DNA of 64,000 bases from assembly GCA_039621445.1 (NCBI GenBank), contig CP154954.1, positions 49,641,847 through 49,705,846 of the forward strand, given 5' to 3'. This DNA comes from Euglena gracilis. Its lineage: Eukaryota. The notes beneath the pieces were generated by a model. It saw only the letters and a program-made list of their open reading frames with translations, was not told the DNA's origin and searched no databases. The stretch's first letter is position 1. Each line of letters starts with the position of its first letter. A program made the position numbers and the translations under genes. This document shows, piece after piece, positions 3,353 through 51,448 of this stretch.

Positions 3353-3531
3353 AAGTCCTTTTTGTGCAAAATTTGACTTATATTGACTTATATACAACGG
3401 GGAGAGGTGTTCTTTTGCCAAAAGTGGCCCAAAATGGACACTTTGCCCCCAGTTTTTTGCATATTCACCCTCGATTGGGGGTTCTGGAGCCATTTGGGTG
3501 GGTTTTGACTGGTGTTGAGGTGATTTGGGTA

Positions 3532-9797: not shown

Positions 9798-11896
9798 TCC
9801 AGCCCTGTCCTAGGTCGTTTTGGGGGGCAAATCTCTTGCGTTGCTCAACTGTACCAGGGCCCCAAATAACAAAATCCCTTGTGTTGCCGAGTCGTTTTGG
9901 GGGGCATAGTAGTATTTCTTCTTTCTGTTTTCTTTGTATTTGGTCAAAAAAAAAAAATCTCGAATTTTTCGAAAAAATTCGAAAGATCCAAGAGCCTTGT
10001 TTTTGGACCCAAATGGTACGCAAATTTATTACCCCCCCCCTAAATGACCCCCCCCCCTAGATGACCCCCCTGGGGGGGTCATCTGGGGGGGGTCATAGAG
10101 CAGAGCAATTTTTCAAGTGGGAAAAGTATCCCCCCCCCTAAATGACCCCCCCCCCCTAGATGACCCTTTGGGGGGTCCTGAAGCAACATTAATAGGGTCA
10201 TTTAGGGGGGGGGGGGTGGTAGAGGAAAGGGGCACAGGATGGCACAGGTACCGGGGGCAGCCAAAAGTCGCATGGCATTAAACGCCAACCGGTTTTAACC
10301 CGTGTGTTTTTATGTCGCCCCCCACCCCTCCACCCGTCAGGCTTAATCCCGCCCCCTCCCCCGGAGGGGTACGACCGGATTTATCCCGACCCTGCTATAT
10401 TCCCCCCCCCGCCCTTGCGGCGAAAGTGAGTCGATTTTTTTTGCGTAAAAAAACAACGGCACAGAAGGCTGCGGCAGGGCACGCAGTGCTCGGCGTTCAC
10501 TACAGTTGGGAACTGAATGCTCTACCGCGCACATTCGGTGAGCCCACGCAGAAGCCTGATTTGAGCATTTACCCAAGGTGCGCCCATGGCCTCTGCAAAA
10601 AAAAAAACAAGCAAGCCTGAACAAAGGCCGCCTGGAAAAGAAAAGGTTTTGTTTCAAGGCAAATCCCTTTTGTTTCAAACCCTTTTTGGGGGGCAAACCC
10701 CTTTTGTTGCTCAACTGTTCAAAGGGCCCCAAAATAACAAAATCGCTTTTGTTACCCACCCCTTTTGGGGGGCAAATCCCTTGTCTTGCTTAACTGTTCG
10801 AGGGCCCTAAAATAACAAAATCCCTTGTGTTGCCAAGTCGTTTTGTTGTGTTTCAACCCCGTTTTGGGGGGCAACCGTTTTGGAAACCCAAGAAAAAGTA
10901 CTCTTAAGGAGAAATGTTCCTGAAAATCTCTGAACAAAAAAGTTTGATCCAACGGGGGTGTTTCCCCCCCCCCCGCGACCCCCGTGTTTGGCAAAATGTT
11001 GCAAATATGAAGTTGTAATGAAATGCACAGCCAGTTATGCACCGTCCCAACATTGGTTTCCAAGCACCAAGTTGCTTTCTTTTTGGTTGGGGGTGTTGGG
11101 GTGGTTGGGGGGGTGGGGGGGGGGGGGGGCGGGGGGGGGGTGGTCGGGGGGGGGGGGGATGGGTTTCGCGGCAAGTCATGCGTGACTTGTGTGATGTCAT
11201 CCTGTCCTCTAATTTTAGATCCTAATTAGGAATTTGCGTGCCATTTGGGTCCTAAAATAGGTCCAATTAGGAATTTGGACCAATTTTCGTACTTCTGATT
11301 CCTAATGCAGTGGCAAATTCCTAATTAATGCGAATTTTTGTACTTTTCGGAAGCCCGAAGCGGGTTCAGGGTGGGGTCGCGGGGGGGGGTCGCGGCATTC
11401 ACAGGAAATTAAAACACAAATTTGAATAAAAACACAACCCTCTGAAACTGAAACAAACAGCGCTATGTTACAAAAAAATGCAACAGTTAAAAACGACCGT
11501 TCGTTGTCAAGACTGTTTGCTTAAGTTTCTTCAGCTTCTTCACCTTCTTTCTCAACTCTCCTGAAGAAGGAATTTTGTGTCACACAAATATTGGCTGTGG
11601 GCTGTTGTTGGAAGGTGGGGGTGCACAGGGAATGCTGAGTTGAATTGTGATGCATGAAATGCGCAAGATGTTGCATGAATGATTTCACAGAAAATGCCCA
11701 GAAAGAAACGTTCATAGGGTTTGCTGGAATATTGTCTTTGAAAAAACGATTGTGATGACATGCCGCAGACAAATGTTGCTAAATGATGTTGCAGATGCAT
11801 TCAGACATTTTGACAACAAAAAAAATGTTTTTTGGCAGTTTGTGAACACTGCAGAAGAACGCAGGGGACAACACAGGGATCATACCTCCAACTGTA

Positions 11897-12056: not shown

Positions 12057-14126
12057 TAAAGTGATCAGCAGAAACTGTACAAACCGGCTCAAAATGCATA
12101 TCCATGATTTCTTCAAATTAAATCATCTCAAAGAGGAAAACAATGGTTCCATTTGACTGTGCCTAGATCTGAATTCAAAAAAGGTCGCAAAAAAAGTTGA
12201 AAATCATCCACAAACCTGACAAATTAAGATCACTTCTGGAATTGCAATTCCGAACAGGTTTGAGCAGGTTTTCCCAAATCACCTCCCCCAGTAAAATACC
12301 TCGACCAGACTAAAGCCGTCAGGATCAATGCCGCCCCCACAAGTGTGAGTCGTCGGGCAGGGGGGGGGGGATATGCACCGTGCAGTTTTTGCAGTTTTTT
12401 TTGCAGTTTTGCGTTTTTGGTTTTTTGCAGTTTTTTTTTGCAGTTTTTTGCAGTTTTTTCTTCCCTCAAAAAAGCACATGTGCATTTTTTTTGCAGTTTT
12501 TCGGTTTTTGAAAAAGTTGAAAACACATTTTTTGATGTGCTCCAAGGCTGGAGGATTTCAAAAAGAACATCAATGCAATTCCATCACATGTTTTGTACAG
12601 CCACAAAATTCTTCGGGGCATTTTTTTTCTTTTGAACACAACGGGTTGCATAGCTGGCACTTCGTTTAAAACGAAGTCAAAAAAAACACGTTTTTTAAAA
12701 AAAACATGTTTTTTTTTAAAAAAAACAAAAAAAACGCCATTGAGGGTCCAGGGCAAAAAAAATTTTTGCCTTTGATTTTAGGTTTTTTTGCCCATCCTCG
12801 GTCAGAGAAAGACACCAAATTTGGGATGTTTCAAGTTAGTTTGGAATGGTTTCAAGCCAAAATGGCAGAAAAATGCCCTATTTTGACCATTCTTGTTGAA
12901 GACAACCAAAAGTATTGGTTTTGAGCTAAGATTGGTTCACCCTTGCGATCAAAGGCAAAATTTGGACCATCATTTTCCCCTTTGTTTTTTTTGCCGTTTT
13001 TTTTGCCCGTTTTTTTAATAAAAAAACAAAAAAAAACGTTTTTTTAAATAAATAAAAAACGCCAGCTATGACGGGTTGGGAGAGAGCCCAAAAGGGCATC
13101 CACCGTTGTTCCACCTAGCGAATTTGTGGTTCGCAAAACAGCCTCAAATTCTTGTACGGTGGGGGGTTCAGGCATCTGAGCATCCATCAGGTTCACAGCA
13201 CGCTTCATGGCTGTGGAACACATCGAAAGGATATTGGCGGCTGAAATAAATACGAATGGTTTTTGTTTCATTTTCCGTTCACTGGTGCCCATAGGGGTAA
13301 CTGTGAACGTTAAATGGTTGTTCCTATGGTCACCCGTGAACACCTTTGAGTGTTCATGGGTACCATTGCATACAATAACTTAGTCACTGCCCCCGCCCCC
13401 CCCCCCCCCCGGGGGGTGACTGGTTTTTTCAGAGTGACTGACTGGTTTTTGGCCCGGACCCCCTCCGGGGGGTCGGCAAAAAATCGTACCGGGGGGGGTC
13501 GGAAAACAAAAGTGACCCGGCGCCTAAGGGGGATCGGCACACCCCTCCCCCCCCCCCCCCCCCCCCTTTTCAGACCCCCTCGCCACGCCATGTCAGGCCC
13601 GCCAAAGAAAATTTTCTTGGCAAACCCCCTCTAGCCGGAAACCTCGCCACGGCGTGCCGACCCCCCTCCGGAATTTTTTTTGGCCTTTTTTTCATGTTTT
13701 GGGTCAAATTTCCTTTGGATTCCAGAGTGGCCGCCCCCCCCCCCCGGGGGGGGGGGGGTAGTGACTGATGGCTTCCCGAAAAAAGTGACTGACTGGTTTT
13801 TTTGAAAAGTGGAGTGACTGGGGGGTCGGTAAAAACTTGTATGTACCCTTGGAGGTACCCGTGAACGCCCAAAAGTGCACCCATGAACGCTAAAAACACC
13901 AAAAATAGCCCGGTAGGCATCTGGTCGGAAAAAATTGCCTACATTAGGGTAACCCGTGACTTTGTTAAACGGTTTTAAACTGGAAACGGGATTCAACCCC
14001 CGTTTTCGCACGGGGAATCATGTTTGAATCCCGTTTCCGCTTATAGAACGCGAGGCGTAAGCAATGAGGAGCACACCAACTGTCTGCCTCCATTTTTTCC
14101 CCTCACGGGACCCACCAGTAGCATTA

Positions 14127-16899: not shown

Positions 16900-19350
16900 C
16901 AGCCCTTTTCGCAAATTCCAAAATCCACTGTTCACCTGCCATGTTGCCCCTTGTTTGAAACCTCTTCTCAAGGGCTTTCAGCAGATGGCCTTAGATTTCA
17001 GCCGTACTGCATGGTACTCTATTTCACAAAATCGCCAAATTGGGCCAAATGGAAATTGTTGCACAAAATACCCCAATTTCTGGCCAAATACCCCCCCAAA
17101 AACTGGTTAGATATGATTGCCACATGTCTAAAAACCATTTTGGACACTTTTTGGCACTTTTTATTTTGGGTCCCCTGGACGCCGTCTTCCCACCCGAACC
17201 GGCATTCTGGACACCGGTTCGGCGCAGAAAATTCTGCGCCGAACCGGCGTCCTGAACGCCGGTTCGGGCGTGAAGCCAGAGCCCCAATACACGGTTTCAA
17301 ACAAGGGGGGGTGGACGCCGGTTCTGTCCTGAACCCGGCGTTCCCGGACGCCAGTTCCGTCCTTCGGATGGAACCGGCGTCCGCCCCCCCTTTTTTGTAG
17401 GAAACCCTAAAAGCATTTTTGAGAGTGATCACGTTTTATTGACTGTGCAAATGTGGAATGAACACGTTTATCTGCCAAAAACTGTTTTTTGTTACCCTCA
17501 CCCCCCCTAATTGCCCCCCCCCCCCTAATTGGCTAATTGGGGGGTCCTTAAGTGAGGTCCATTAGCCAATTAGGGGGGGGGTTAGCCCAATTGGCCAATG
17601 GACGTTCCCTTGGCCAACTTTGGCCAATTTCGGCAAGGGCTCAGAAAACCTCCAAAAACGTCCGTTTTGAAAATGTTAAAAATTGCCGGATAAGAAAAAG
17701 TCATGACCAATCCAAAAAATGCACAAAAAATTGACCAATTTTGCCCACGTCAAAAATTATGGGGTCGGGGTCCTCGAGCCCCCCCCTAATTGTCCCCCCC
17801 CCCCCTAATTGGCTAATGGGGGGTCTGAAGGAGCCCGGCCATTAGCCAAATAGGGGGGGGGGGGTGAGGGTAGCTCTGGTTCTGGGCCACTTGCCGGGCC
17901 GGGCTGGCACCATCAGACAGGCAATCAGGGTTGACGTTTTTTTTGTTTTTTTAAAAAAAAAACACAAAAAAACATGTTTTTTTTGAAAAGCAAAAATTGA
18001 CCTTTTTCCTTGCGAAATCGCCATTTTTTGAGGAAAATTTTTCCGGGGTGGTTCGGGTCACGGGGGGGGGGGGTTCACGGGGGAACACCACATTTTCGGT
18101 GGTTAAATTAGGAATCATTGAAAACGAATTTTTTGGGGAAAATCCCTTGTGGCGCCAAATTAGGAATCCCCAACTTAAAATTAGTATTTTGACACCAAAT
18201 TAGGCATCACCAGTCCAAATTTTGCAAAATTTATGCCTCAAAATTATGAATCTACCTGAATATTTTGTCAGATTAGGCATCACCGGCCAAGTTATTTTTC
18301 AGAAAAAAATTGGCCGAAAAGGGTCTTAGGTCGGGTCGGGGGGGGGGGGTCACGGGGGGAATACTCCCTCTAAAGTTTTTTTTATGTGTGAAAGTATTTC
18401 CAAATCTGTGTTTTCTGGTGCAAAAAATCATGCTTTCAACCCAAAAAAAAAGAAAAAAATGAATGCCGCAGAGATAAAAAATGAACTTTTTTCCAAAAAA
18501 AAATTGCAAAAAATTTTTCCCCCAAACCCTCCATGACGTTTTTTTAAAAAAAACATATTTTTTTTAAAGAAAAAACATGTTTTTTTTGTTTCAAAAAAAA
18601 CAAGCCGTCAACCTTGCAGGCAATTGCACAAAATCTGGCCCCCCAAAACCCCAACTGGATTGCCAAGCAGAGGGGGGAGGGGAGCCTTGTCTAACCGGGG
18701 TGGTGCATGCGGCACTTCAGTCGTTGCATGGGCCAATTTTTTGGCAATTTTTTCGGAGAAATGTTAAAAATGTCACCTTGTTTGGACATTTTTTGGGTCC
18801 GGAAGGCAAATTTTCTGATACGAAAACTGTGTCCAGAACGCCGGTTCGGGCGTGAAGCCGTGTTCCAGAACGCCGGTTCGGGCCCCTGGGTTTTTCAGAA
18901 TTATGGTTAGGAAATTTTAGCTGGACCCCTTGGGTTTTTTCAGAATTACGATTTTGGACCCTTTTCGCAAATTCCAAAATCCACTGTTCACCTGCCATGT
19001 TGCCCCTTGATCGATAACCCTTCTCAAGGGGTTTAGATGGCCTTAGATTTCAGCCCTGCTGCATGGTATTCTATTTCAGAAAATCCCCAGATTTGGCCAA
19101 ATGGAAATTGTTGCACAAAATACCCCAATTTCTGGCCAAATACCCCCCAAAAAGTGCCCAGATATGATTGCCTCGTGTCTACAAACCATTTTGGACATTT
19201 TTTGGCACTTTTCATTTTCGGTCCCCAGGACGCCGTTTTCCCGCCCGAACCGGCGTTCTGGACACCGGTTCGGCGCAGAAATTTCTGCGCCGAACCGGCG
19301 TCCAGAACGCCGGTTCGGGCGTGAAGCCAGAGCCCCAATACACGGTTTCA
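16900..19350 (+). repeat. ~400-bp direct duplication (16900-17300 and 18960-19350)
   Basis: CTTTTCGCAAATTCCAAAATCCACTGTTCACCTGCCATG...GCCCCAATACACGGTTTCAA is present in both copies. Confidence 0.85.
17495..17870. mobile_element. TA-flanked MITE, TIR CCCTCACCCCCCC with CTAATTGG subterminal motifs
   Basis: TA|CCCTCACCCCCCCTAATTG...GGGGGGTGAGGG|TA. Confidence 0.8.
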
Positions 19351-19756: not shown

Positions 19757-19771
19757 TTGTCTTTCCTTCAG
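19757..19771 (+). promoter_or_regulatory. Candidate spliced-leader trans-splice acceptor for the SPFH gene
   Basis: Polypyrimidine tract + AG (TTGTCTTTCCTTCAG) 25 nt before the ATG; SL trans-splicing is general in Euglenozoa. Confidence 0.45.
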
Positions 19772-19796
19772 TCTTGGACTTGTCGATCCTTTTTGT

Positions 19797-22700
19797 ATGG
19801 GCTGCGTCTATTGTGTGGAGCAGTCAGAGGTTGCTATTGTTGAATCATGGGGAAAGTACGAAGCCACACATCTCCCTGGCATTCATTGTTTAGTTCCATG
19901 CAGAGATCAAGTTGCCGGCAAATTGACTTTGAGGACACGAGAACTCCACATCAAAGTTGAAACTAAAACAGCTGACAATGTGTTTGTGACAGTGCTCATG
20001 CTCCTTTCTTCATCCCTTGTAGTTATTTTCCCATTTTATATCAGAGCTTGAAAGAACTTTTTGAGGATTTTGCCTTTCACTTTTTTTCCATGCAAAAATT
20101 TACCGACACTAACAGATTCTGCAGGGGCGCTGGGACATGCGAGCGAAGCGAGCGGCCCGGTGCCCCTGCTGTTAGTGTCGTTCTAAAAACCTATTTTGTG
20201 TGCCCGCACGCCTGTCTTGAATTTCATTCTACCGAACCGCCTGGATGGAAATATTGCCAAATAAGTGGTTTCCTGAATGGAGATCCACCGACCTAAACAG
20301 ATTCCGATGTCTTGGAAATCGACCAACCTTTGTTTCATTTTTCTGAATGACATTTTGTTCCATTTTGGGCATTTTTGGCAACATCTACATTTCCCCAAAT
20401 TCTCGACCAATGAAACTGAAATTCCTGATTGTTAGATGATCAGGATCGTATCCGCCTGTTTCTGTTTCCACCAAAGAGTAGTAGCCTAGTAGGTCAATCT
20501 TTGTTCTTAATGGGATCCCCACCCCATTTTGCACAGCCAAAGGAAAAACCAGTGAAACCAGATTAGGGGAACCCCCTTTTCCATTTGTTTTATCGAAGCT
20601 TTGCATCGGTCACAAAGCTCAGTGGCCAGAACACAGGGTCAGTGACCTGAGGTTGTGGGTTCGAGCCCCACTGTGTGCATTTCCATTTTTGCACTAATGT
20701 GAAATGATGTGCCTTGGGTTCAAAAACTGCATTCACAGTGGGGTTCATAATGGGCATTTTTTGAAGAAAAAAAACAAAACAATGTGCTCTTTTTAAAAAA
20801 AAAACATCAAAAAACAAAAGGGGAATTTCATTGAAAAAAAAACTCGTCCACACTACGAAACAGAGTCCTCGGGATCCTTTTTTCACCACAGCAGGTGCTT
20901 TTTGCATCTCAGCAACAAGAAACTCCAGGGATGAAGGGGCTTTCAGACTGGCCTCCCACACGAGGTTTTGCCGCTTGGCCACGAAGAACAATCTATAAAA
21001 AAAATGAAGAATCAAAATTTCGCTTTTCAACTTCACCTATTTCAACATTTACGGATTTTAGCAGGGGCACCGTTACAATGAAACGGGTTTAAAGACAGGA
21101 GCCCGTTTCTTTGAAACGATTTTCAGAGGGGCGCCTTTACTATAAAACGGTTTTCTGAGGGGCGCCGTTTTCTTGACAAAAACCACAAAAAAAAAACGGG
21201 AAAAAAGCGTCCGTACGGGTTACTAATCGTCGAACGTTGTTCAAGACAGGCGTGCGGGCCCTGCAAAATAGGTTTCAGAACAATCGACTGCACTAACAAT
21301 TTTAGCAGGGGCGCCGGAGGCGCCAGGCCGCCCGGCGCCCCTGCTAAAACCGCTAGTGGCAGTTGATTTTTGTATAAAAACTTTTTTTCTGGGCTCGATG
21401 TCTGTCTTGAATTTCTGCTGATTTAAATGGAATTCAGGCTAAAATTGTTTAGGTCATTCCATTCAGGCGCCCGCTTAGGTCAGTCAATTTCCAAGCCGTA
21501 GAAATCTGTTGCTGGTCAGATTCGGAATTTTTAGTGAAATTTTGGACATTTTTGGAGTTTTACTTTTCTTCGAAATTTTGGGCACCATGGAGTTCAGGGA
21601 GCATTTTTAGCCTAGTCAGAGTGAATTTTTTCGGTCAGAGGGCAAAGATGACAGTTTTATTTTCTTGTCAATTCAAAGTTTTTTGTCCATTCTGACTTGC
21701 ATGGCTGTCATCGCCCACATAGCTGGATGGAGATGTGTGTTCGAACTGCACCATAGTTGGCAATTTGTTTTTTTTTGGATGCTGTTTTTTTCAAAATTCA
21801 ACAATGTTTTTTAAAAAACAACAAAAAATACCCATGAGGTTTTGCACAGAAAAAATTTTGAAAGCATATTTTCACTCATTTTGGCAATTTTGGGTCATTT
21901 CTGCCAAAAAATCCTTCCACAAAAAAGTGAAAAAAGTCATAACACAACATTGTTTTGCATTTTTGGATGGTTTTGACCATTTTTTTGGCAGTGTTTGAAT
22001 TTAGTGTCAGCGGCCCAAAAAAGGCTGAATGCCAAGATTTTCGAGGTGTTCGCTGTGAAGTGTGTAGTGTTTGGTGGCACTGGAAGTGTGTGGATCTCCG
22101 ACATCCATCCAGATTTGGGTGGATGTGCGAGGGCTGTCGCAACGCTATGCAGTAGTTCGGTTTCAGTTGTGCAGTCCTGGTCGTGATTGTGTCTGGGTTA
22201 TTTTTGTCACGTTTCTGTACTTACCACGTTTTCAGCTCTTTTTGAGCTCTGGGACACTAGAACCAAACCTGCGTGTGCAATTCTGCATTCACATATTCGT
22301 CATCTGTTCCATCAGTTACCAGGCAGGTACAAGTACAAGTAAACGGGCGCCCCTCTGAAAACCGTTTTAAAGAAACGGGCGCCTGCCTGTCTTGAAAACC
22401 GTTTTATTGAAACGGATGCCTGTCTTGAAAACCGTTTCATTGTAACGGCGCCCCTGCTAAGTTCCGTTAATGTCATTAAATTTTTAGGACAGGCGTCGGG
22501 CCCTGGAAATAGATTTTAATGGAGGCTGGGTGGTCAGGGGGGAGATGAATTTGAGGGGGGGTCTGGCCGGGGCGGCGCACGCGGCGCTTTTGCTACGGGC
22601 CAAATTTAGGACATTTTTTAAAAAAAATTGAAAAATAAAAAATTTCGGTAGTTTTTCAGACCGGGACAGCAGTTGTTTAATGAAATAATGTCGAAAAAAT

Positions 22701-25700
22701 TCAGTCCAAGTTTTTTGGGGCATTTTGTGGGTCAGATTGTTTTGTGACCGCCTAGGCAGAGGGGGGGGGATGAGGGGGGGTCGGGTGGGGGGGGGGGCGC
22801 CACAGCATGCGTTGTGCCACGGCGCCAGGGGGGGGGATGGCGTCCGGCAAAATGGCGCCATCTATACAAACAAGCCATTCACCTCCAAATGTTGAGTCTC
22901 AAATCATTTTCTGAACATCCACTTAGGCGGCCGGATTTGCACTCAAGTTTTTTTATGATTTGCGCACTTGCACTGCAGTATTCAAGCCGGTTCAGTCACC
23001 CCGTCGGCACCAGTTCCAAGTGTCGTAACAGCCGGTGTGTGCCTCTCACCTGTTTGATGTACGAGAGCACCAGTCTCACCCTCGGCCCTATTCACGTCAC
23101 TCGGTAAGCAGCATGCACACCAAACCACCGGGAGTTAATGCCCTACAACACAGGGGTGTAACAGTTCATTAACTGTCTTCCGTGTGTCAGGGTACAGGGT
23201 CCCAGAAATTTCGTAAAATGGTCGAATTTGCGCAAATGAGCCCATTTCAAAGAAGAAACCCTTAAGTGCAAATCCGGCCGCCTAAGATCCAGCAAAAAAT
23301 CAACCAATGTAACCAATATGGTTTTTGCATTTTCAGAACGTCGCAGGGCAAAAAAACACCCCATTCAATCAAGTGACCACCCCAGAATGACATGAAAAAT
23401 GAAAAATTAAACACAATAGTGGGGAACACAGGGGGGAACACAAACGTGTTTTTTTTACATTTTTGGATTTTGGCAAAATTTGCTTTTTCTTGGCATTTTT
23501 GGGATTTTTTTGTTGAATATCTGAAAAATATCTGATCCAAAAAATTCCTCATTTTTTGTCCGATTTTCCGCCGACGCTTAAAATTTTGTCAAAAAATTTC
23601 CACTTTTGTAAATAATTGGCATTGCATTTTTTGTCAACAAAATGCTTATTTTTATGCAAAATGAGAAATTTTCCCCGGCGGAGCCGAAAATTCCTTTCCA
23701 ATGTACATCCTGGGAGATCCTAAAGAATTTTGTATGCAATTTGCGGTTTTTTTTTGTGGGTTTTTTTGTGGTTTTTCGGTGGGTTTTTTTTGTTTTTTTT
23801 TGTGTTGTTTTGCGTCGTGTTTTTTTGGGGGGTTCCATGTGTTTCCCCCCTGGTAAACAGCGTGGAAAAGATTTCAAATGAACAATGTAAGAGTGGGATC
23901 GAATGTGTAGGTGCCACTGACCTCCCTTCAATGGTTGGGTTTTGGTGCGGGTGGGTGGTGTATCACACCGAGAGGCCCCGAAACAGTTTTGAGCGGAGAG
24001 AGTGAAGCAAAGGGCTTTAGAATGGAAAGAAAGAGTGCGACACCAACCGTCACCATCATGTTCATGCAGGGTTGCTTGCATTCCTTGAATCTGTTCTGTC
24101 ATATCCCCCCCCCCGATCTTGTCCCATACCTTGGCCCACAACAGTCCCGGTGTGGGACAAGATCGGGGACAACAAGGGGGTCAACGAATTTCCTTTTGTG
24201 GACCCTTCCTTAACCCAGGCCATTGGCCGGGCATGAGACAAGATTGGGGACAAGATCAAGATCGGGGGGGGGGATGATAATGAGGAAGGACCCCAAGATA
24301 GTTCTGTCTCAAATTAGTCCCAGACCCTCCCCCATTGTTCCTGACCTGAACTCTCAACCAGTTGACCCCCCACCCCAAATGGCCCAAATTTCATTGATTT
24401 TTCATCGAAAACCCCCCAAAAATTCAGTGCCTTTGGCGCTGGAACCCTGCCCCTCTCTGGGAAGTCAGCCGGTCCGAGTGACTAGCGAAGTCAACTGTGG
24501 GGGGGGGGGTCCAGCAGCCCCAACCCTCCCCAGTTGACAAACAAAGTCAACCGAACCGGGGGCGGTCCGAAAATGAAGTCAACCCAACTATCTACCTCCA
24601 AGGATGGCTGGAGACAAAGACCTATCAGAGGCAACTGCGCTTCCATAAGCCTGCAGTTTTCTTTCAAGACCAGAGGCGTCCAAAAAATGCAATTGGAACA
24701 AAAATTGAGAGCAGCAATTCCAAATTTAAGGCCTGTTTTTTTGAAAGAAAGCATTTTCTTCTTTTTCAAAAATATACGGAACATATTATCCCTGGGTATA
24801 GTATTTTGTGCATTTTTTTGCAACGTTCATGTTTCCTTTTTTTGCAAGTTTTTTTTGCAACTATGCGCAAAACCAAAAGAAACAAATGAATTTTTACATT
24901 TTTATATCTTTCAAATGTGAACTCCTGCGAAAGGAGACCAGGCAGAGGGGAGGGGTTGCAGCGCGCGCCGGGAGGTCCAGTGGGGCAGAACATGCGGTGC
25001 TTGCATTGTGGCGTGGGCCAAAATTTGGTCATTTTCTTCGGAAAAATGTTGATGTTTTGGCCATTCTTCGGGTCGGGATGGTGATTTTTCAAGGAAACAT
25101 ACAGGAAAAATAGTTTTAATTTTCGGGCTATTTTACGAGGGGTCAAAATTTTTTGAAACCCCCCAGCAAGGCTGGCAGTAAAAAGAATTTTTTTTTGAAA
25201 AAAGAACACAAAAAAATCCAACAAGGGTTGGAGGAATATTCTTTTGAATGGGAATTTTGGTAGGGTTTTCCCATCGGCCATCACATACACAGCGATTTCC
25301 AGGGGGATTTTGCCTGTGCCCAGGCTGGGCCGCCGGGCTGCCGGGACGTGCCTCCGGGTCGCCGCTGGGCAGGAGAAAAAGTCCCTTTTCAGAAAAGCCA
25401 TCTTTTATGGCATTTTTTAAAATTCAAATCCCGACCCGGCTCGGCAGCTTGGGGTCGGCCTGACCTCCCAGCCTGGGCGCAGCTGGATCTGGTGGAGCAT
25501 GCTGTCCTGGCTGTTGGCCTGATGGCCCAGCCCGGCCTGACTTCCTTGCATCCCACCCTAAAAGGGGCTGCTGCCGGGGGGGGGGGGTTCCCATCCCTCC
25601 TAGTTTAGTCGTCCTCTGCCAAGGAGCTGCATATTTGAAGACCAAAAAAAATCTTCATTTTTGCTGGGCTTTTTGAAAAACTCAACATCCAGTATTGTTG

Positions 25701-28700
25701 AGCACCACACGTTCAGGGCAGACATTTATCAAGCCAAAACAAAATTTGTTGTTTGGGCGACTGGGACCAACAGACTGGATCAAAATGTGAACAGCAGTTT
25801 CAACCGAAATTGCAGCGGTGTGACGCTTGGCTTTCAGTTGTTGGGAGAGGGGGAGGGGACAGGTGGAAAACAACAGGGCAGGGATGGGATGCAGTAGCCT
25901 GAGAAACAATATTGGTTGAAACCCATGTTCAGCAGCATTTTGCACGCAGAAATATAGGGGGTGATAGCTTCGGAACCAGTCGTACACCTGCAGTGCGGTA
26001 TTGTGTCTCTTCCCTCCCCCACGTACATAACATCCCTGATACCCTCAAAACTCCCCTGGTGTATTTATGGGGAGGTCCAATAAAGGCAAAATCCCCTGGA
26101 CTGGTCACCAGCGGCCTTGGACGGGTCACTGGAGGCCAAAAAAAGTGCGATTGGGAGGGAGGGTGTTACTTAATTGGGGTGGCATTTATGTCGGGAGTGG
26201 TTCCATATCTATTAAAATATGCTGTGTGGTACAGTGTCATGTGGTGTGAGGAAGCTGGACGATGCAAACTTAAAAACAGGAGGGGCTCGTTGCTGGGTTT
26301 TGCAATGCGAGTACCCCTGGGCCAAGGTGCTGGACACCGGCCTGCGGCAGGCCTTCTATGAGCTGTCCCATCCAGGCTGAATTTTGAAGGTGAGGCCGAC
26401 CCCGCTCCGGGAGGGGGGGTAATGCCTGGCTGCCAGACACTCAAAGGCCCTCCGACATCCCCCTCTGCCGGGGGTTGGACATACTCAGCCTAGTCCCATC
26501 CAGACCAGCAGCTGCACTCTTATGTCCTGAACAATGCCCACACAGGCGCTTTGGTTGGCTCTGAAGGGGGAGGGTTGCACCGGTTATTGCTTAAGGGTTC
26601 GCAGTGCCCCGGGGGGGGGGGGGTGAATTCAGGGGGGAGAAAATTGCACCGTGCAATTTTTGCAGTTTTGTGCAATTTTCGATTTTCCTGAAATGTGCAA
26701 TTTTTGGCAATTTTGTGCAATTAATTGCACATGGCCCAGGATATTTTGTTTTGGAAAATGTCAGTTTTTGATGCCTTTGAGAGCTTACCGGTTTTTTTTT
26801 TGCTGGGAAACTGATGTGCGTAGTGAAAATTTCCGTTCAAAGGCTGTTTATTGTTGGTTTACTCAGTGTGCGAACCCTAACTTGAGTCCCCTGCCCAAGT
26901 GTCTTCCAACAGAAAAGGAAAAGGAAAAAGGAAGAAAAAAGGAGTTTTTTTTATTTTTTTTGGAAAACCGTGCAATACGTTTTTTTTGGTTTTCGTGGTG
27001 CATGGTCCCTGGCATTCTTGTGAAGTCTGTCCATGCCTCTACACGTCGTCGGGTTTTCAAATTTCTCAAGGCGCAAGGTCGCCCCCTGACCCTCCCCCCC
27101 AAAGTAGGGGGCACCCGCTGGAACTCTTGCAGGGTTTTCCCCCTCAAGAAAAGGACCCTGTTACTGTGCAGGGACGCTTTTAAATGGTGGTGTGAGCATC
27201 TTTTGGAAATGAAAAATTTTTTAGCATCGGAAGTACAGCGCATGACACGTTGCGTCTTCCGCTGGATGATGAAAAAATTCAGGATGTCCACTATGATGCT
27301 GTTCAATGGTGACATTGATGGCCGCTTTGTTTGACCGCGGCGGACTGCTGCCCAACAGGCTTCACCTGTTTTGCTGTGCCGCGCTGTCATTTTTGGATGT
27401 TCTTGACAAAGGAACAAGATGAGTCTCCAAGTAGGTGCATGTGTGCATGCTCGTTACAAGGGATCCAATGCAATCTCCAAGTATGTGCAATTTTGTGCAA
27501 TTTTGTGCAATTTTGTGCACTTTTGTGCAATTTTTTTTGCACTGCAATTTTTGACCTTCCGATGTGCAATTTCTCCCCCCCCCTGCTGAACTGCAGCTAG
27601 TCCAAATCTGCCCAGTGGGAATTCCAGTGGACTCCCCGGCGGGGGTCCGCCAGCAGGGCTAGCTAGTGGAAAGATTGAAAAAGATTGAATTTTTTTTCAA
27701 AACTTGCCAAAAATGGCCATATTTGGCCATGTTTGGGATTTTTTTTTGGAACATTTAAAACCTGATGTCCACCTCGGCACACAGCGCCGAAAATTTTTTT
27801 CCAGTCAGGGGGGACCCCCGGACACCGGCATTAAGTGAGCGTTGGTTTTGTACAGAGGGGTCCCTCCTCCCTCGGAGTAAGAGGCGGGGTCCAACCCCCC
27901 CCCCACCCCCCCCCTCATTTTCTTCTTGCTCCAAGAAAACATCCAAGGCTGGGGTCGAGTGGAATACCAAAGCAAATAGAAATAAGGGAACAGTGAGAGG
28001 ACACATCCATTTTGATTGTGTGATCAGTTCTGAGTCGGACGTTCACAACGCTGGAGAGCCTTTGTGACCTGGTCAGGGCCCAGATCCCGAAGTACGAGCT
28101 CGACCAGCTGTTTTTGGCGAAGGATGAGATCGCCAAAACCCTGAAAACCGAGCTGGAGCATGAAATGAATCAGTTTGGCTACACGATCGTGCAGACCCTC
28201 ATCACGGACATAGACCCTGCTCCGCTTTATGCTTGAAACCACAACCTCATCAGCTCATCGTCTATGCTTTGGAAATTCTGTCGGTGTGAGTTGATTTCCA
28301 CCATCGTCATAAAGCGCTCGTTTAGAGAAAACAAAAGCAAACAAACGCATACGCACATATCCAACCTCCGCATGTGACCAAGTGTGCCCGAGTCAACCTG
28401 TGCTTTTGCTGCGAAAGCGCATTAAAAAACTCCTCCAAAAGGGAAGCACTGTTTCTTTTGATTTGACTTTAACATGCCACGTTGACGTCGTGTACTGTGG
28501 CATTTTTTTTTCTTTTTCAATCTGGCAAGCGATTTCCAGAATACCAAGCATGCTTCAGAATCAGACGCAACGGTGAAGCGTGCTGGACAGGCTTCTTCAA
28601 AGCAGTCTCCTCTCCTCCAACTTAGCAACAAACTGTTACCGGCTGACAGGGATAAGATCAGACAGACCGCAGGAGAGTTCGACAGACCTGTCCTATATGG

Positions 28701-31634
28701 TGGCCAGATGTTTCTTTTAAAGGCTGGCGACCCGTGGGCTAAGTTACCCCCCCCCCCACCAGAATGCTGTAGTTACCCCATAGCACAAGGCACATTAGTT
28801 TGGTTCAAAAGGGGTGTTGTTATCATAGAGGGGGGGAAGGGGGGTTTCCAGAAAAAAAAGAAAGATGAGTTGGGGGATGGCCACAGGCCCCCTCTCCCCA
28901 CCACCCAGGGTATTAAGTGAGCGTTGGTTTTGTCCAGGATGGAAGGGGTCAAACTATTGGGGTCCATATCCCCCTTTCCCCTTTCAGACCAAGGGTGAGG
29001 GGGTGTCCGGGACCGACCCAGAAACCAAAATTATTTTTCTTTGGCACTTCGTGCCGGTGAAGATGAAATTTTGAGTGTACGGTTGGCCGATACTTTTTTC
29101 AGCAAAAAAGTGCGCGAGAACGCCACTTTTGGGCCTGTTTGTCAAGGGCCGAATTATTCCGGTGCATTCCACTAAAAAATTTTTGCCCAGGGGAAGTGGG
29201 GTCCGACCCTCCCCTCCAGGGGGAGGGAGAGGGGTCCAGACCACCCCGCCTCCCCTCCTCTCTGCCACTTAAATACCCTGCCCCCACCGTCCGTCACCCC
29301 CCCCCCTGTGCTGGCCCGGAGGGCATGGAATTCGAGACTGTGGTCACTGCTGCAATGTGCGAAAACGTTGTACACAGAACTTCCCAATTTTTTCCTGTTG
29401 CCATCTTGCCTATGTTGATTACTCTCTGGGAAACTGCAGCAAAAACAATAAAACCTTCTTTCAAATATTGTTCACAAATTACGTGATCTGACGCTCCATG
29501 AAGACTCTTCCAGGTTACCAAAAGCCGTTATTTATAACTCATTGTTGGCCTGGATGCAAAGCAAACTTGAGTGCAAGGACTCCATAGATTGTCAAATGAA
29601 GCCTGGGGCTATGAATGACATCAACGCTGCCCAGCGATTGCGTGTCGCCTTCATACTTCCTTTCCTCTGTTCGTTGCCGAGTCGGCTACTTGAATTTTTC
29701 CAACATTTCTGAATCTTGCAGCAGTTTCCAAAATCGTTCAGTTACGACTCTGCCCTGTCTCTGTCAGTGAAAGGCAGTATGGCAACGGCTCATGACAAGG
29801 CGGAGGCGGAGAAGTTGGCAATTGTCAAAGCAGCTGAGGCGGATGCCGAGAGCAAACGGCTCTCTAAGGGAGAGGGCCAAGGGATGGCAACACTATCCTC
29901 TACATCAGCAGAATAGTGGAAGTGCAGTGGAATTGGGGCCTCTTTCCTGTTTCCCGAACAACCCCCCCCCCCCGAAGAGCTTCCCCCGCCTACCATGATC
30001 CAAGGTGGCCACTTATTTTAAGGAAGCTTCCCATATCGTGGCCGAAGTTTATTCAAATTTGCATGATTCTGAAAAGAGTTTTACATGTTCTTTCGTATTC
30101 CCAGGAAACCGTTTTGTGCCGTTTCTTATGTTTACACTCCCCTGAACCTACGAAAAGAATTTTTAAGATTTACAAAGTGCAAAGTTGTGTCCACAAGTCC
30201 ACACTTTGTGCTGCTCTTGTATCAAAAGGTCCTCCCCCTCGTTGGGCGTTGGCCTGGCCGAGCAACGCAAGGCGATCATTATGGGCCTCCATGACTCCAT
30301 TCGAATGTTCACAGCCCGACAGAGGTACCCCACAGACGTTACCCCTTCATTTACAGGACAGCTGTGTGTCCTTTGTGTTTTTCTTCGTAGTTGAGGAGAT
30401 GCCTCTCCCCCACACCAACATCACGCAGTCGGAGGTGATGGAGCTGCTCCTCATGAATCAGTACTTCGACACCCTGAAGGAGATGACCGCTTCCTCTCAC
30501 GCGAAGACAATCTTTGTTCCCCACGACCCGGTCGCAGGCCGGGCCATCCCCTGGAGTTGTGTGATACCGCTGCTGGTCCGTTGCTCACTCCAAAAGTGTT
30601 GGACAGGGTGGTGCATGAACCCCCACCCCAAGACAAAGCATCTAATTGAGAGCATGCATCCATTTGAGGGCCCCTGGGGGTTGCTGAGCTTGGGTTAGAA
30701 TTCGGGCTGCCTTGCTAATTCCCTCCGGGGGCTGTGCAGGCTGGGCCGTACCAAATGGGACAATTGCCAAAAAATCACCTGCAGAACACAGCTTTGAAAA
30801 GAAAATGAGCGTCTGGTGACTCCCCAAAACCCCCTGAAAACCCTCAAATAAACTTTTTTTTTAACCCTTTTCGACCATTTCCCCATGGTTTCACTCAGCA
30901 AAAGGGGGCTGGATGTTGGGCTGGTGGTACCCCGGAGGGGGGTGCTGTGCGGCTGGACCGGGCCAAAATCGACCTCTGGGGTCTGCAAAACCTTAGAGAG
31001 CCAATGACCCATACCTTTTAATGAGGTGCCAGCACCGGTGGCATTGGTAGCCCAGCGATGATTCATTCTTCAAATGAACTTCAGATGAAGGGGTTTTCTC
31101 TGAAATGCGAATTCCCTCCACTAAAACCACGCGCCAGAGAGAGAAGGGATACAGAAAACCTCGCACTGTCCCCCAGACGCCCCAGATGGAATTACAGCAT
31201 TTTTCACACCGAATATTGCGTATGCCGTATCCTGGGGTGCTTGCTGGCGATGGGCTTTTTTAGCCTGCCCAAACGAGGGCATTTTCATTTATTTCATTTC
31301 GTCGAAAAAAGTGCTCAAACACAGTCAAAATTGGTGAAATGAAATGAGCGTTTTTCTCCTTACATGGTTTCCGTGCATATTTTTTTGACTGAAATTTCAG
31401 TCCAGCTGCATTTGGATGATTTCCTTTTGGGCTGTAGCCCGGTCAAGCCTGGCAGTCACCTGGCCTCCTCCCCGCCGTCCTCCGCTGTGCTAACTGTATT
31501 CCCCATCCTTCAATTTGCGGGAAAAACAGCCTGACACATCACACCACATGTGGTGGCTCGCCCTCGCCCAGGGCATCGGGCAGCAGATACGACAGGGTTT
31601 GCTGGAGGCTGGTCAAAGCTTTAAAATGGACTGA
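19797..31634 (+). CDS. SPFH/band-7 protein, hypersensitive-induced-response (HIR)-like, ~285 aa. Exons approx. 19797-19991, 22299-22320, 26325-26369, 26498-26529, 28066-28218, 28564-28584, 29611-29643, 29779-29865, 30245-30313, 30393-30530, 31572-31634
   Basis: Joined translation MGCVYCVEQSEVAIVESWGKY...ETKTADNVFVT/VICSISYQ/VLDTGLRQAFYELSH/PDQQLHSYVL/DLVRAQIPK...GYTIVQTLITDIDP/DATVKRA/MNDINAAQRLR/MATAHDKAEAEK...SKRLS/GVGLAEQRKAII.../...QYFDTLKE...IFVPHDP/GIGQQIRQGLLE is colinear with plant HIR proteins. The exons total 858 nt in frame; several junctions are ambiguous by a few nt. Confidence 0.9.
20608..20679 (+). pseudogene. Degenerate tRNA (Thr-AGT-like) or tRNA-derived SINE head in intron 1
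   Basis: A box AGCTCAGTGG, T-arm GTGGG-TTCGAGC-CCCAC, AGT in the anticodon position; acceptor stem has 2 mismatches and U8 is replaced by A. Confidence 0.6.
21045..22473. repeat. Long inverted repeat pair (arms ~21045-21170 and ~22341-22473)
   Basis: TTAGCAGGGGCACCGTTACAATGAAACGG versus CCGTTTCATTGTAACGGCGCCCCTGCTAA; related mini-hairpins at ~20103-20180 and 21301-21349. Confidence 0.85.
22025..22155 (+). pseudogene. PHD-finger-like fragment, probably transposon-derived
   Basis: VRCEVCSVWWHWKCV...WMCEGC matches the CxxC-x4-HxxC...W.CxxC pattern; isolated inside intron 1. Confidence 0.5.
26370..26497 (+). other. 128-nt nonconventional intron equivalent to a MITE with a perfect 8-bp TSD
   Basis: GTCCCATC (26365-72) CAGGCTGA...TCAGCCTA GTCCCATC (26493-500); removal restores ELSHPDQQLHSYV. 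Confidence 0.85.
26630..27585 (+). mobile_element. hAT-derived element with a transposase remnant, inside SPFH intron 4
   Basis: TIR CAGGGGGGAGAAAATTGCAC / GTGCAATTTCTCCCCCCCCCTG, TGTGCAATTT subterminal repeats, internal frame with PPKVGGTRWNS (hAT TRW motif). Confidence 0.75.
28585..29610 (+). other. Textbook euglenid nonconventional intron
   Basis: T|GGACAGGCTTC...GAAGCCTGGGGCT|A: CAG at +4..+6, CTG at -8..-6, extended pairing; joins VKRA to MNDIN. Confidence 0.9.
28906..29280. mobile_element. hAT-type MITE nested in a nonconventional intron
   Basis: TIR CAGGGTATTAAGTG / CACTTAAATACCCTG; flanks CCACCACC / CCCCCACC (7/8). Confidence 0.85.
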
Positions 31635-34456
31635 ACTCTGTCCCCGACCACTGCTGTCTGGGGGCCTCCCCAGTCAGGGCGTCGCTGAAGCCAGAGAAGG
31701 GTACCAACTGCCTGCCAGAAGGCAGCCCCCGAAGCGACTACCTGGAAGGTGTCAAAGTTGATGTGGGCCAAAGTTGGACGAAAATGCACCTGGCACACAT
31801 CATTGGTTGATTCCCAGTTGTTTTTTTCCTCGCAGTTTTCGAGCCTGGCTGGACCTTGGCCCCATTCCGATCGGGACAGCCAGAAATTTTTCCAGCCAGC
31901 CCGAATTTCCTTTCCTCTGAACTTCCTCTGAGCTGGATCCTTCACTGGAGGGTTACCCCCTCAAATAATACCCCCTGGGGTATTTTTTTTCCGCCCGATG
32001 TCCCAGCCGAGGAGGAGGGTATTATTGACCCCAAAATTTTCGAAATTTTTCGAAGTCCCATAGGACCCAAAATAGCACCCAAACCCCCCCCTTTGGTCAT
32101 CTATTTTACTTTCTCATGAAATTTAGCATTTTTGGAGGCCAGATGGTCCAGAGAAATCGATTTATCGTCAAAGATTAATATTTTTCTACGTACATTTTCA
32201 GGTCAAAATCCGGGGTGTCGGCCCGAAATTGGGGGGGGGGGGAATTAAATCGGTCACCGAAGTCCCGCCCCGGGGGGGGGTATTATTTGGGGGGGGGGGT
32301 TTATTCAAAGAGGTTCTTTCCCCAGCTTTTGACCTCCTCCTCACCCCGCCCACCATGCCCACCCTGCCAATCGCACGTGTCTTGCCCGCCTCCCCGCAAT
32401 GTACAGTACCTGGCTCAGGCCTTCCCCTGCAAACCATCACCTAGGTTAAAGTTTGTGTTTCTTGCTTCCTGGGGGGTTCGAAATCAGTTTGGTTGCCCAG
32501 CCGGATTCTTAAGGTTCTCAGGGGGTTGGATGGGTGAGTTCACCCTTGCCTTGAGGGTGTCCACATTGGATGGCTGGTAAAAGATGCAAACCTTGGTTGG
32601 GTGTGGGAGAAAGTTCCCCAGGATCTCAATTATCATTGAGCTGACCCCCCCCCCCTTCGCCAGCGTCTTGGTCTCGAGGCAACGTGGAACCTAGGGAAAT
32701 ATATGTTTCATTCTCCATCTGCTTTCTTCGAGTGAAATTATGGGGGCGGCCCTGTCACTGGCCTGTGTCTTCTTCCACTGGCCTACACCCACCCCTCAGG
32801 CACTGCCTTTGAGCAGAGGTTCTGTAACATATGCCTGGGCCTCTGAACCCCGCACCGCGCATCCGCACCTTCACTGGCGTGCCCTTTTCTTGACCCAGCG
32901 TTTTCATTTGCATTTCCATCCCAGAAAAAAGCTATTGCACAAGGACAGCTGAAAGTACCGAGGAATCTTATTTTATCGAGACATTGCTATTTTCTTTGGA
33001 GGCACTGGCTGCAGAAGGTTTCATCATCCCCGAGAGCCCTCTGTCGACCCCGCGACAAAAGGATATTCCTTTGGGGATGGGCCATTGCCTAGTACCCAAA
33101 ATACGGCTTGATTTGGATCAGAATGCGTTTCATTTTCTGATCACCGCTCATATTTCTCGGGCAAATGACAAGAGCAAGCCCCCCTCCCCACCCTCAACCT
33201 AGTTGGAGGAGATCTGGAACCCACTTGGCGGGATTGGCCATTTTTTTTTCCTGCGGAAGGGTTCCCCCCACCCATGCCAGTGCATGGAGACCGGGGAGTC
33301 CAATTGTGTCCAGAACGACTCCATCTCCGGAGAAAATGCCTGATCATAATTGGTGGATGATCACCAAAGCATGAGGTGATGAATTTGGCGAAGTTCCAGA
33401 GTGCTCAGTGTGGCAGCTGATGACTGTGGTTTCAGCGCGATTTGGTTGCCATACTGTTGCTTGTACAATTTATTTTGTTTATTATATTATATATTATATG
33501 TTGTATATTAAAAGGCGCACCAAATTCAAGTCTTTCACATTAGCCAATAACGACCAAAAAAGCCCAAAATGGCCATATTCCCCCACCAATGGGCAATTTT
33601 TGCCAACCTGGGGTCCCCTTTCCCCCTTGTCTGGCGACCCCCCCCCCCCCCCACCCAGAGGCCATCGGTTTTCAGAGAAATATTGTGCCAAATTGGCCAT
33701 TTCCCCATTTTCACGCCCCAAATTGGCCATTTGGCCTGGGAAAAATTTATCCCCCCAAAATGGGCCATTTTGGTCCAAAAGGTGCTGATTGTTCCCCCTC
33801 CCAGGTTGGCCATTGTCCAAGGCCGCCCAAGGGGTGGCCAATCTGGGGGGGGTGAGGGTCAATTGTTTCCAGTGTTCATCTCCGACTGCGGGACAATCTG
33901 GTAAGGTTTCAGTTCGCCCTAAGGCCCCCCAAGGGGGGGGGATGGTTTGGACCCCTGGGGGGGGGTCCAAACCATCCCCCCCACCAGCCCAGAAATATGC
34001 AGGCTGGTAGTGTCCTGCCCCCCGGGGGGGGGCAGGATACTACCTGCGACGGTATTGCTTGGGGTTACTGAAGGGGTTGTGTATATAGTGTGCCAAAAGT
34101 TTGTGTACCCCCTCGGGTTTTGTTGGGGGGGGGACTCAACCCCAAGCCCCAAAGCCCATGTTACCGATGGGCTGTGGTGATGGTGTGCGCACACACCCCA
34201 GTATTGACCACCTCGCCCCCTTGCCGGGCTGGGGTTTGAGTGCCAAACAAAAGGGCCACAGATTGAAAGGTTTTGCTCTTGCACAATTGGCCTCAGATTT
34301 GCACAAAGCCCTGTGTGTGGCAGAGGTTGGTGCTGCTGTGCGGCAGGTCTGTGCAAGCATTTACACCCCATCACCACAGCCCATGGGTAACATAGGCTTT
34401 GGGGTTGAGTGCGCGCCCACAAAACTCGAGGGGGTATAAAATTTTTTTGGCACACT

Positions 34457-34989: not shown

Positions 34990-43152
<8,163 letters not shown>

Positions 43153-43476: not shown

Positions 43477-45108
43477 TCACATCTGAAGCGGTGATCGGGA
43501 CCTTTGGCGATAACCCGAAGATTGTGATTGTCCGGATTTGTGTGAAAACCCAGAGGAGCGTGAGCTCCGCGAGGATTGTGAACCCCTTGGACTCTGATAC
43601 CGCTTTCGCGTATCAGGGTGGGGGGAATCACGGGACGTATGCCCCGCTTTGTTGCACAAAAAGCAAGTTTTGTCAGAAGATTGGTCAGATGAGCGCGGAT
43701 AGCGCGTTTTTGTATCTCCTCTTGGAGAATTTGTATGTTTACCGTATCCCCGTGGGGATTTTGGCGATTTTGGAGAAGAAGTCTTTTGTAGGGCACTTAC
43801 CGTACCGCTAGGGAGACCAGCGGTAGGGTGGTGGGTGTAAGCCGATTGTATCTGTCCCAAAAGTTGTGAGAGTTTCATTTGTTTGTATACAGAGTTACAT
43901 TGTTGTTCTAGTGTATGTTTGTTGGCCGCGAGTTCCTCGCGGTGAATGTCCTTGATAATTGTAGGAATGAAATGGAGGAGAACCGCATCGAATTGTTCTT
44001 CTTTCATTATGTTCACTCCCAGTTCATCAACCTCAGAAGCCAATCCCACCCAATTGGAATACCAAAGGTCGATGGACTTCCATTTTCGGTCACTGGGCGC
44101 GAATTGCCGCCATTTTTTCTCCAGCGTAATTCGCGAAATGAGGCTTGAACAGGTTGACGCATATTGGTCAACCAGTTCATCAAAAGTTATCCGATTCCGG
44201 ATCACAAGTTGTCGGGCGCGTTCTTTTTCTTCCTTGGGGAGGCAATCAATGAATTCCATCTTGATTACCTCAGGGTTCCCATCCTGGGTTGGACCCTTCA
44301 AGTCCCAGTAGTATGTCCAGTCGCGCCAAAATTGTTTCCAAGTTGTGGGATCTCCGTCCCATTGTGGCTTTATCTTGTTAGCAATTGTGATTGTACCTTT
44401 GAAATCGCGTTGTGGACCACGATTTCCATCGTAATTGTTGGGGTAAGGTTGTTGTTGTGGCATGCGCGAATGCGCATCCATGATGGTACTCATGGTACCG
44501 TAGGTACCATGGGTATTTGGTACATCGCAATTCCGCGAATTGTATGGTTGTGGTTCACGATTCCGCGATTCGGGTTGTAAAGGGTCGCGATTCCGTGATT
44601 CGGGGTGTGGCAACATACCAGGGGGGTAGGAATCCCGTTGTTCACCCGCAAATCGGGGAACCGCGGTAAATTCCGTGTTTCGCATTCGCGATCCATGGCC
44701 AATACCCGGGGTAGGGGTATGGCTCATACCACGAATCAGTCCCGATTCGCGAAGTTCTTGTTGTAAAACCGGAGGATTCGCAGTTTTTGTGGTAAAAACC
44801 GGTTCCTCATCCGAAGATTCACCCTTAGGGGGGGGGGGGAATCTTGAGTTGTGGAATAAACGGGCGATTGTAATCGTGATTGTAGGCATGTTCATGATCA
44901 TGTGCATCCGTGGATGCTTGTAGGGCACGCACATCCGAAGATGCTTGTAGGGATGCGCATACTGCGCTTTTGGAAGGATTGGCATCCAACGAATCGCGAA
45001 TTTGATGCACAAAGTCGCGAGTTGGATGTCGGGCATCCGAAGATGCTTTGGTTGATGCGCGAAAAGCGCGTTGTGAGCTGGAAGTTGCATTTTGACCACC
45101 GAAAACAC
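43477..45108 (-). pseudogene. Gag-like ORF (capsid-like region plus degenerate zinc knuckle)
   Basis: WDGDPTTWKQFWRDW (gag-type F/W-x-G...W..F motif) and CFLCNKAGHTSRDS (CCHC with the last C changed to S), then a Ser/Arg-rich tail; frameshifted at both ends. Confidence 0.75.
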
Positions 45109-45113
45109 GGTTT

Positions 45114-51420: not shown

Positions 51421-51448
51421 CAATGGCAAAGTGCGGAGCCCGAGGTGT

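Follow-up and report, generated by a model that had tools for sequence, protein, structure and literature searches.

Two questions about the nonconventional introns of euglenids are open: where they come from, and why three free nucleotides precede the terminal stem at their 5′ end while five follow it at the 3′ end. We address them with a 64,000-nt stretch of Euglena gracilis nuclear DNA (contig CP154954.1, positions 49,641,847 to 49,705,846; hereafter the window), in which the third coding exon of an SPFH/HIR gene (Band 7, PF01145) carries a 120-bp insert resembling a MITE (miniature inverted-repeat transposable element). An initial annotation had described the insert as a MITE of the hAT superfamily, lying between perfect copies of an 8-bp target-site duplication, and had proposed that nonconventional splicing removes it from RNA together with one of these copies. 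The equality of the two spacers, 3 + 5, with the length of the duplication would then be no coincidence. We compared the insert and the neighboring introns with the splicing code 5′-N3CDG...CH′GN5-6|R, which was defined by knock-ins in E. gracilis and according to which every single CAG or CTG change assayed impaired splicing of the intron EaNC-INT1 (Nomura et al., 2025; PMC12501133).

The insert does have inverted ends and is flanked by two perfect copies of the 8-mer (Table 1), which occurs just twice on the plus strand of the whole window, with one reverse-complement copy at 42463. The insert termini are complementary at seven of eight positions, the outermost pair (C versus A) being mismatched. 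The seven consecutive pairs, 26374–26380 with 26485–26491, form a stem that is present in the minimum-energy RNA fold; the fold energy of the whole insert is no better than that of shuffled sequences (z 0.32). One correction concerns the direct repeat, which is actually 11 bp long (GTCCCATCCAG, at 26365–26375 and 26493–26503), since CAG also opens the exon that follows the right-hand copy. Therefore, 12 intron placements, with starts at 26365–26376, give the same mRNA. None of them yields GT/GC-AG borders, and the sole GT start (26365) ends in TA. Placed in the 3/5 register, the intron begins with ATC-CAG (26370–26375), that is, three spacer nucleotides followed by a sequence that agrees with the CDG motif, and the first base of the downstream exon is a purine, A at 26498. 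In two DNA sequencing runs (X1 and X6), single unbranched contigs span the insert without differences and at single-copy depth, so there is no empty allele in these runs. From the inverted repeats starting with CAGG and the exact 8-bp duplication, we conclude that the insert has the build of a cut-and-paste DNA-transposon insertion.

To look for similar elements, we scanned the whole window for inverted ends of the form YAG..CTR (at least 7/8 matching, 30–2000 bp apart), with palindromic flanks removed. Among the 915 candidates, exact flanking repeats of 8 bp were found three times, where 0.02 were expected, and no exact repeats of 7 bp or of 9–13 bp were seen. When up to one mismatch was allowed, six candidates had 8-bp repeats (0.58 expected), none had 7-bp repeats and one had a 9-bp repeat. 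An 8/8 match was absent in 12 shifted registers of the same scan. In 40 first-order Markov simulations, exact 8-bp matches did not occur at all (0 per run), and near-exact ones came to 0.2 per run. The palindrome at 51466–51804 also scored 8/8; it was dropped as an artefact, its long arms running through a self-complementary 8-mer. Four 6-bp matches, whose 7/8 ends are weak, appear to be chance hits. An unrestricted inverted-repeat scan gave a noisy length spectrum owing to microsatellites and interspersed repeats, and its “gap” controls were not independent of true elements. Thus, we relied on the CAG-anchored scan.

CAGG..CCTG ends are common to free elements of the window and to the introns 22321–26324, 28585–29610, 39662–39724 and 58869–59588. 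For the element at 51914–52196, the first 10 and last 8 nt are identical to those of the core of intron 28585–29610. As free elements lie within other introns, and one of them has a second, diverged copy, they are DNA insertions and not splicing products. The presence of these free copies nearby suggests that nonconventional introns start as DNA-transposon insertions. Some results speak against so simple a picture. A second copy of the focal insert was not found in the 64-kb window, where it is single-copy. In a per-terminus control with a low-complexity filter, exact 8-bp duplications were also not exclusive to CAG ends. Elements of the window with GGTAC.., CATAG.. and TATAC.. ends are flanked by 8-bp duplications as well.

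We then asked which superfamily the CAGG elements belong to. In hAT elements (Ac, hobo, Hermes), the termini are typically YAG or CAGRG and the duplications 8 bp long, and the terminal consensus starts with YARNG. The insert resembles hAT MITEs of the Ac/Ds type in its 8-bp duplication, in its short inverted repeats starting with YAG and in the mismatch of the outermost base between the ends, which is C versus T in Ac and C versus A here; a cut-and-paste origin is also compatible with its single copy. Its ends read CAGGC and TAGGC, of which the first four bases fit the YARNG start while the fifth does not. Sister elements start with CAGGG or CAGGC; at the fifth base, for which the consensus gives G, half of the elements carry C. 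Nor do the 8-mers duplicated in the window follow the nTnnnnAn target preference of hAT, and the focal insert differs from hAT MITEs further in having no transposase, subterminal repeats or family shown for it. Also counting against a hAT assignment, no transposase was detected in the seven open reading frames of the window that were scanned (the longest included), the only matches being to reverse transcriptase and a Dam-like methyltransferase.

A real alternative is that these are genuine MITEs with 8-bp duplications from another superfamily, with Merlin as the leading candidate and P-like or Mutator-like elements possible. We regard this as less probable than not. In PMC8101967, the DNA transposons reported from E. 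gracilis are Merlin elements; it documents two families, with transposases, a conserved DDE motif, GG ends and 8-bp duplications in both, and lists an 8–9-bp duplication among the Merlin features. Because Merlin elements of this species also make 8-bp duplications, hAT is not established on the duplication length, and no report of hAT in Euglena was found in the literature searched. In the window, the two elements at 5399–5625 and 3528–3760 start with GG, Merlin's terminal dinucleotide, and with their GGTAC ends and 8-bp duplications they fit Merlin better. The focal insert shares the 8-bp duplication with Merlin, but its ends start with CA and not GG. The other intron-like elements similarly end in CAGG..CCTG, and taking GG.. 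as their start would shift the flanking repeats out of register. The hAT label, which fits YAG ends with 8-bp duplications and is the best fit to the ends, is not demonstrated. Of the hAT MITE origin given in the initial annotation, the transposon anatomy, the 8-bp duplication and the existence of further CAGG..CCTG elements stand, while the family is a proposal.

Whether the insert is spliced was assessed from homology and RNA depth. The introns of the SPFH/HIR gene were placed with the help of two homologues from euglenids that a search with exon 1 had recovered: P0001, a contig of transcript size that is 85% identical in exon 1, and P0002 (82%). Both read ..AFYELS[L/M]PDQQLHSY.. across the insertion site, and by tblastn the window is colinear with them and gap-free only with 128 nt removed. 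This is exactly the length of 26370–26497, the removal of which had been said to restore the frame. In RNA run X21, the bin 25961–26457, which holds 45 nt of exon and 88 nt of the insert, has a summed depth of 3216; assigned wholly to the exon, this corresponds to ∼71x. Five other exon-bearing bins of the gene have 56–74x, and retention of the insert would predict a summed depth of 7300–10000 in this bin. Taken together, the binned depth and the colinearity with the homologues suggest, if only indirectly, that the insert is removed from the RNA.

The alternative is a recent transposon insertion that is unspliced or poorly spliced, giving a null or weak allele, with the RNA coming from another allele or a paralogue. 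Several points favor it. No RNA joint at 26369/26498 appears among the joints listed, the rows of which are DNA contigs only. Unspliced RNA that decays, together with transcripts from another allele or a paralogue, could produce the same depth, and the RNA reads do reveal a second allele or paralogue. Positions −8 to −6 of the placed intron (26490–26492) read CTA and not CH′G, and none of the 12 placements agrees with the published code; the same CTG-to-CTA change blocked splicing in the knock-in assay and gave intron-retaining transcripts, as reported in PMC12501133. Furthermore, a perfect duplication leaves no time for gene decay, so that an intact frame elsewhere proves nothing, and the exact protein of the window gene is missing from a collection of 5.8 billion proteins. 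On the other side, in both DNA runs the contigs that carry the insert are unbranched and reach the full depth of single-copy sequence, and the exon beside it is covered as deeply as the other exons of the gene. Of the annotated nonconventional introns of E. agilis, 38.8% fall outside the code (PMC12501133). Other introns of the SPFH/HIR gene also deviate from CAG/CTG, namely 26536–28071 (CAC/GTG), 28219–28563 (CCG/CAG) and 30318–30411 (AGA/TCT), and a GTG/CAC pair occurs among the deviating neighbors as well; the removal of all of these is likewise deduced from homology. On balance, we consider this alternative unlikely. Orthologous loci, whether carrying the insert or lacking it, were also sought in metagenomes; the best match had 46% identity, and no euglenid locus was among the matches.

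Read as an intron, the insert shares with euglenid nonconventional introns the non-GT-AG borders, the CAG at +4 to +6, the terminal stem joining the ends, the 3 + 5 free nucleotides, the purine at the start of the next exon and repeats that make the junction slidable. It differs from the usual ones in its CTA 3′ motif and in the perfect 8-mer repeat (11 bp with the chance extension), which is far longer, and its splicing is deduced.

If the 3/5 spacing reflects an 8-bp duplication, older introns should retain traces of it. Besides the SPFH/HIR gene, the window contains a gene for a fusion of DnaJ and trans-2-enoyl-CoA reductase; the same fusion occurs in Eutreptiella protein P0006, which was used as the guide for the introns at 35002–42443. 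The two genes together have six GT-AG introns, 12 nonconventional introns with a +4/−6 stem including the focal one, one with a 3/6 register and four that were left unfixed by homology and stem (19995–22301, 29650–29787, 29866–30244 and the last one of the SPFH/HIR gene; used in a sensitivity count only). Ten introns had been assigned to the 3/5 register in the initial annotation. Eight of these (22321–26324, 28219–28563, 28585–29610, 35098–35332, 37954–38045, 38094–38437, 39662–39724 and 40331–40535) fit both the homology and the register as given. The remaining two needed correction: 30314–30392 was misplaced, as homology gives 94 nt and the best register is 30318–30411, and 58869–59588 fits only on the minus strand.

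For introns fixed by homology and stem register, the 8 nt that precede +4 were matched against the 8 nt that follow −6. In the 11 older introns with 3/5 spacing, 39/88 positions of this register are identical, while 24 shifted controls gave 14–31 (mean 22.8). A permutation test that exchanged partners between introns, and so preserved any preference at the junctions, returned P = 0.002. With the minus-strand intron 58869–59588 included (12 older introns), identity was 42/96 inside positions −5 to +3 and, over the 16 positions beyond these limits, 46/192. Counting the four uncertain introns gave 48/120 against a control mean of 31, and the ten introns as originally placed give 34/80 against a control mean of 20.8. 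We conclude that the older nonconventional introns retain excess identity in exactly the 8-nt window predicted by the 3 + 5 model.

This excess could in principle be a junction sequence preference, with the spacers set by the geometry of the splicing enzyme and the sum of 8 a coincidence. A pyrimidine|purine preference is described for both junctions in a 2024 review (PMC11282704), and the acceptor spacer tolerates 5 or 6 nt according to the knock-in study (PMC12501133). Two features of our own data weigh in the same direction, against a strict rule. The intron 40588–41093 has a clear CAG..CTG stem with six 3′ spacer nucleotides (AGA-CAGGGACC..GGTCGCTG-ACCCCC|G), a natural N6 example of the published code; as it uses 3 + 6, the sum is not always 8. 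The sample is also small, comprising 11–15 introns of three genes in one window. However, the flank permutation retains positional preference and still separates true from permuted partners, the excess spans all eight positions from −5 to +3 and stops there, and an insertion leaves the message intact only where the two spacers add up to the length of the duplication. Coincidence thus appears quite unlikely, and the claim that 3 + 5 = 8 has a cause is supported by the identity in the predicted positions of the window's introns, with the one 3 + 6 intron as an exception to it.

Staggered double-strand-break repair during intron gain, without a transposase, was the authors' reading of the eight-nucleotide direct repeats at the strain-specific new gapC intron 4 of Euglena agilis ACOI 323, another gene in another species (Milanowski et al., 2016; PMC4770533), and would suit an insert without sibling copies, but it leaves unexplained the inverted repeats abutting direct repeats, the sharp 8-bp length, the same architecture in non-coding DNA and the two-copy family, and is very improbable here.

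The account that we favor is that of a transposon insertion matched by its excision from RNA, and we consider it moderately likely as a whole. A short non-autonomous cut-and-paste transposon (120 bp, CAGG..CCTA) would have inserted into the coding exon of the SPFH/HIR gene and duplicated 8 bp. In the pre-mRNA, the inverted ends would pair, and the nonconventional pathway would cut on either side of the stem, 3 nt upstream of its 5′ arm and 5 nt downstream of its 3′ arm. The element and exactly one copy of the duplication, 128 nt, would thereby be removed and the frame restored without a scar. Generalized, the nonconventional introns of the locus would be older insertions of the same kind, the duplications of which have partly decayed. 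We propose that the 3 + 5 spacer rule equals the duplication length because only that sum removes the insertion scarlessly; which of the two shaped the other is something we can only infer. More tentatively, and with rather less than even confidence, the splicing machinery may act on RNA as an excision system fitted to a single class of DNA transposons, removing any CAG..CTG insertion from transcribed exons scarlessly in either orientation. A bolder proposal is that machinery and transposase recognize the same ends, or that the former is derived from the latter.

MITE-like insertions were already proposed as a source of nonconventional introns on the basis of their inverted repeats (Milanowski et al., 2014; PMC3935182). 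The 2024 review refers to the CAG/CTG ends as terminal inverted repeats and to the junction repeats as similar to target-site duplications (PMC11282704), and the MITE idea is mentioned in the discussion of the knock-in study (PMC12501133). In these three sources the idea is put in general terms only, as had been noted at the outset. A MITE origin and duplication-like repeats are thus in print, while a link between the 3 + 5 spacer sum and an 8-bp duplication, or the naming of hAT, was not found in the literature searched. To this, the locus adds free CAGG-ended elements with exact 8-bp duplications adjoining the introns, one such element placed as an intron in a conserved exon, and a measurable signal of decay in the eight positions predicted by the spacer rule. 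Were the splicing machinery such an excision system, most nonconventional introns would be decayed transposon insertions, and the share of ∼70% nonconventional introns in Euglena would be explained. If the account as a whole is true, DNA transposons have a second, non-spliceosomal route to making introns on a genomic scale. The first route is exemplified by the introner elements of Micromonas and Aureococcus, reportedly DNA transposons that make introns on insertion, as Huff and co-workers, cited in PMC11170887, are said to have described in 2016. There, too, the element and one target duplication are reportedly removed from RNA; introners, however, are said to use the spliceosome and GT-AG sites derived partly from the duplication, whereas excision here would be non-spliceosomal, structure-guided and, by our proposal, independent of orientation.

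Table 1. Positions of the genes, introns and transposon-like elements discussed, numbered from the first nucleotide of the window.
Feature	Position	Strand	Details
Left copy of the 8-bp target-site duplication, GTCCCATC	26365–26372	+	5 nt exon and 3 nt intron spacer in the 3/5 register
MITE-like insert, 120 bp	26373–26492	+	terminal inverted repeats 26373–26380 (CAGGCTGA) and 26485–26492 (TCAGCCTA)
Right copy of GTCCCATC	26493–26500	+	identity extends 3 nt (CAG, 26501–26503) into the exon
Putative 128-nt nonconventional intron, placed in N3/N5 register	26370–26497	+	CAG...CTA; exon resumes with A; proposed removal
SPFH/HIR gene (Band 7, PF01145)	19771–31631	+	start codon 19797; last coding exon ends at ∼31631
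SPFH/HIR nonconventional introns, 3/5 register	22321–26324, 26536–28071, 28219–28563, 28585–29610, 30318–30411	+	placed by homology and stem
DnaJ–enoyl reductase fusion gene (DnaJ and trans-2-enoyl-CoA reductase)	35002–42443	+	
DnaJ fusion gene, nonconventional introns	35098–35332, 37954–38045, 38094–38437, 39201–39563, 39662–39724, 40331–40535, 40588–41093		40588–41093 in 3/6 register
DnaJ fusion gene, conventional GT-AG introns	35401–37294, 37485–37867, 38547–39034, 39848–40225, 41178–41541, 41691–42356		
Nonconventional intron of coiled-coil gene	58869–59588	−	GGG-CAGGCC...GGGCTG-CGGCC|G
Free MITE-like element, CAGGGTATT..AATACCCTG	28906–29280		7/8 duplication (CCACCACC/CCCCCACC); nested in nonconventional intron 28585–29610
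Free MITE-like element, CAGGGCAGAA..GTGCCCTG	41231–41453		7/8 duplication (CACCCATG/CACCCGTG); nested in GT-AG intron 41178–41541
Diverged second copy of the 41231–41453 element	36530–36751	−	∼75% identity; flanks match 5/8
MITE-like element, CAGGCATTTGC..GCAAATGCCTG	61548–61834		exact 8-bp duplication GTTGGGAC
MITE-like element, CAGGGGTTTTT..AACACCCCTG	62522–62788		exact 8-bp duplication ACCCCCAC; starts with CAGGGG
MITE-like element, CAGGCTTCTTTTTAAG..	51914–52196		16/16 inverted repeat; 7/8 duplication (GGTTGGGC/GGTTTGGC)
691-bp element, CAGGGTTGACG..CGTCAACCTTG	17926–18616		exact 8-bp duplication CAGGCAAT; upstream of SPFH/HIR gene
Two-copy family with ends GGTACTTGT..	5399–5625, 3528–3760		8-bp duplications: GTACCTTG exact; GTGATTTG/GTGATTGG 7/8; GG ends fit Merlin
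Element CATAGCTGG..	12649–13070		exact 8-bp duplication ACGGGTTG; non-CAGG ends
Element TATACATCT../CATACATCT..	53966–54405		exact 8-bp duplication CCTCTGAC; non-CAGG ends

Some further observations concern the genes themselves. At 19771, RNA reads of run X21 have a loose 5′ end, ATTTTTTTTC, which matches the 3′ end of the Euglena spliced leader; spliced-leader addition presumably takes place near this position. About half of the RNA reads show clustered T>C or A>G differences at 31592–31652, in the last exon or 3′ untranslated region of the SPFH/HIR gene. At position 30416, 16/53 RNA reads differ from the rest, and both DNA runs have T where the window has C. These differences show that a second allele or a close paralogue is expressed. 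In the DnaJ fusion gene, GT-AG and nonconventional introns alternate, and several of its introns carry long (GT)n/(CA)n arrays. Within the region of the minus-strand coiled-coil gene, a 57-nt segment (60123–60179) has the ends CAGCAGC..GCTGCTG and is flanked by TGGCCT as a direct repeat of 6 nt; this could be a nonconventional intron of very small size or a product of chance. Also on the minus strand, 43480–46934 holds two long open reading frames, of 584 and 606 aa, whose Pfam matches are weak coiled-coil ones only, in repeat-rich surroundings.

Other repeats of the window are of different kinds. The segment 32029–32295 is a very high-copy repeat, with a DNA contig depth thousands of times that of single-copy sequence. 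In many contigs its end is joined to its start across just 3–17 intervening letters, suggesting that tandem or nested copies exist at other places in the genome. Finally, 49050–51810 contains a retroelement with a reverse-transcriptase fragment and a match to a Dam-like methyltransferase, followed by the 339-bp palindrome with perfect arms at 51466–51804; we assume this retroelement to be DIRS-like.

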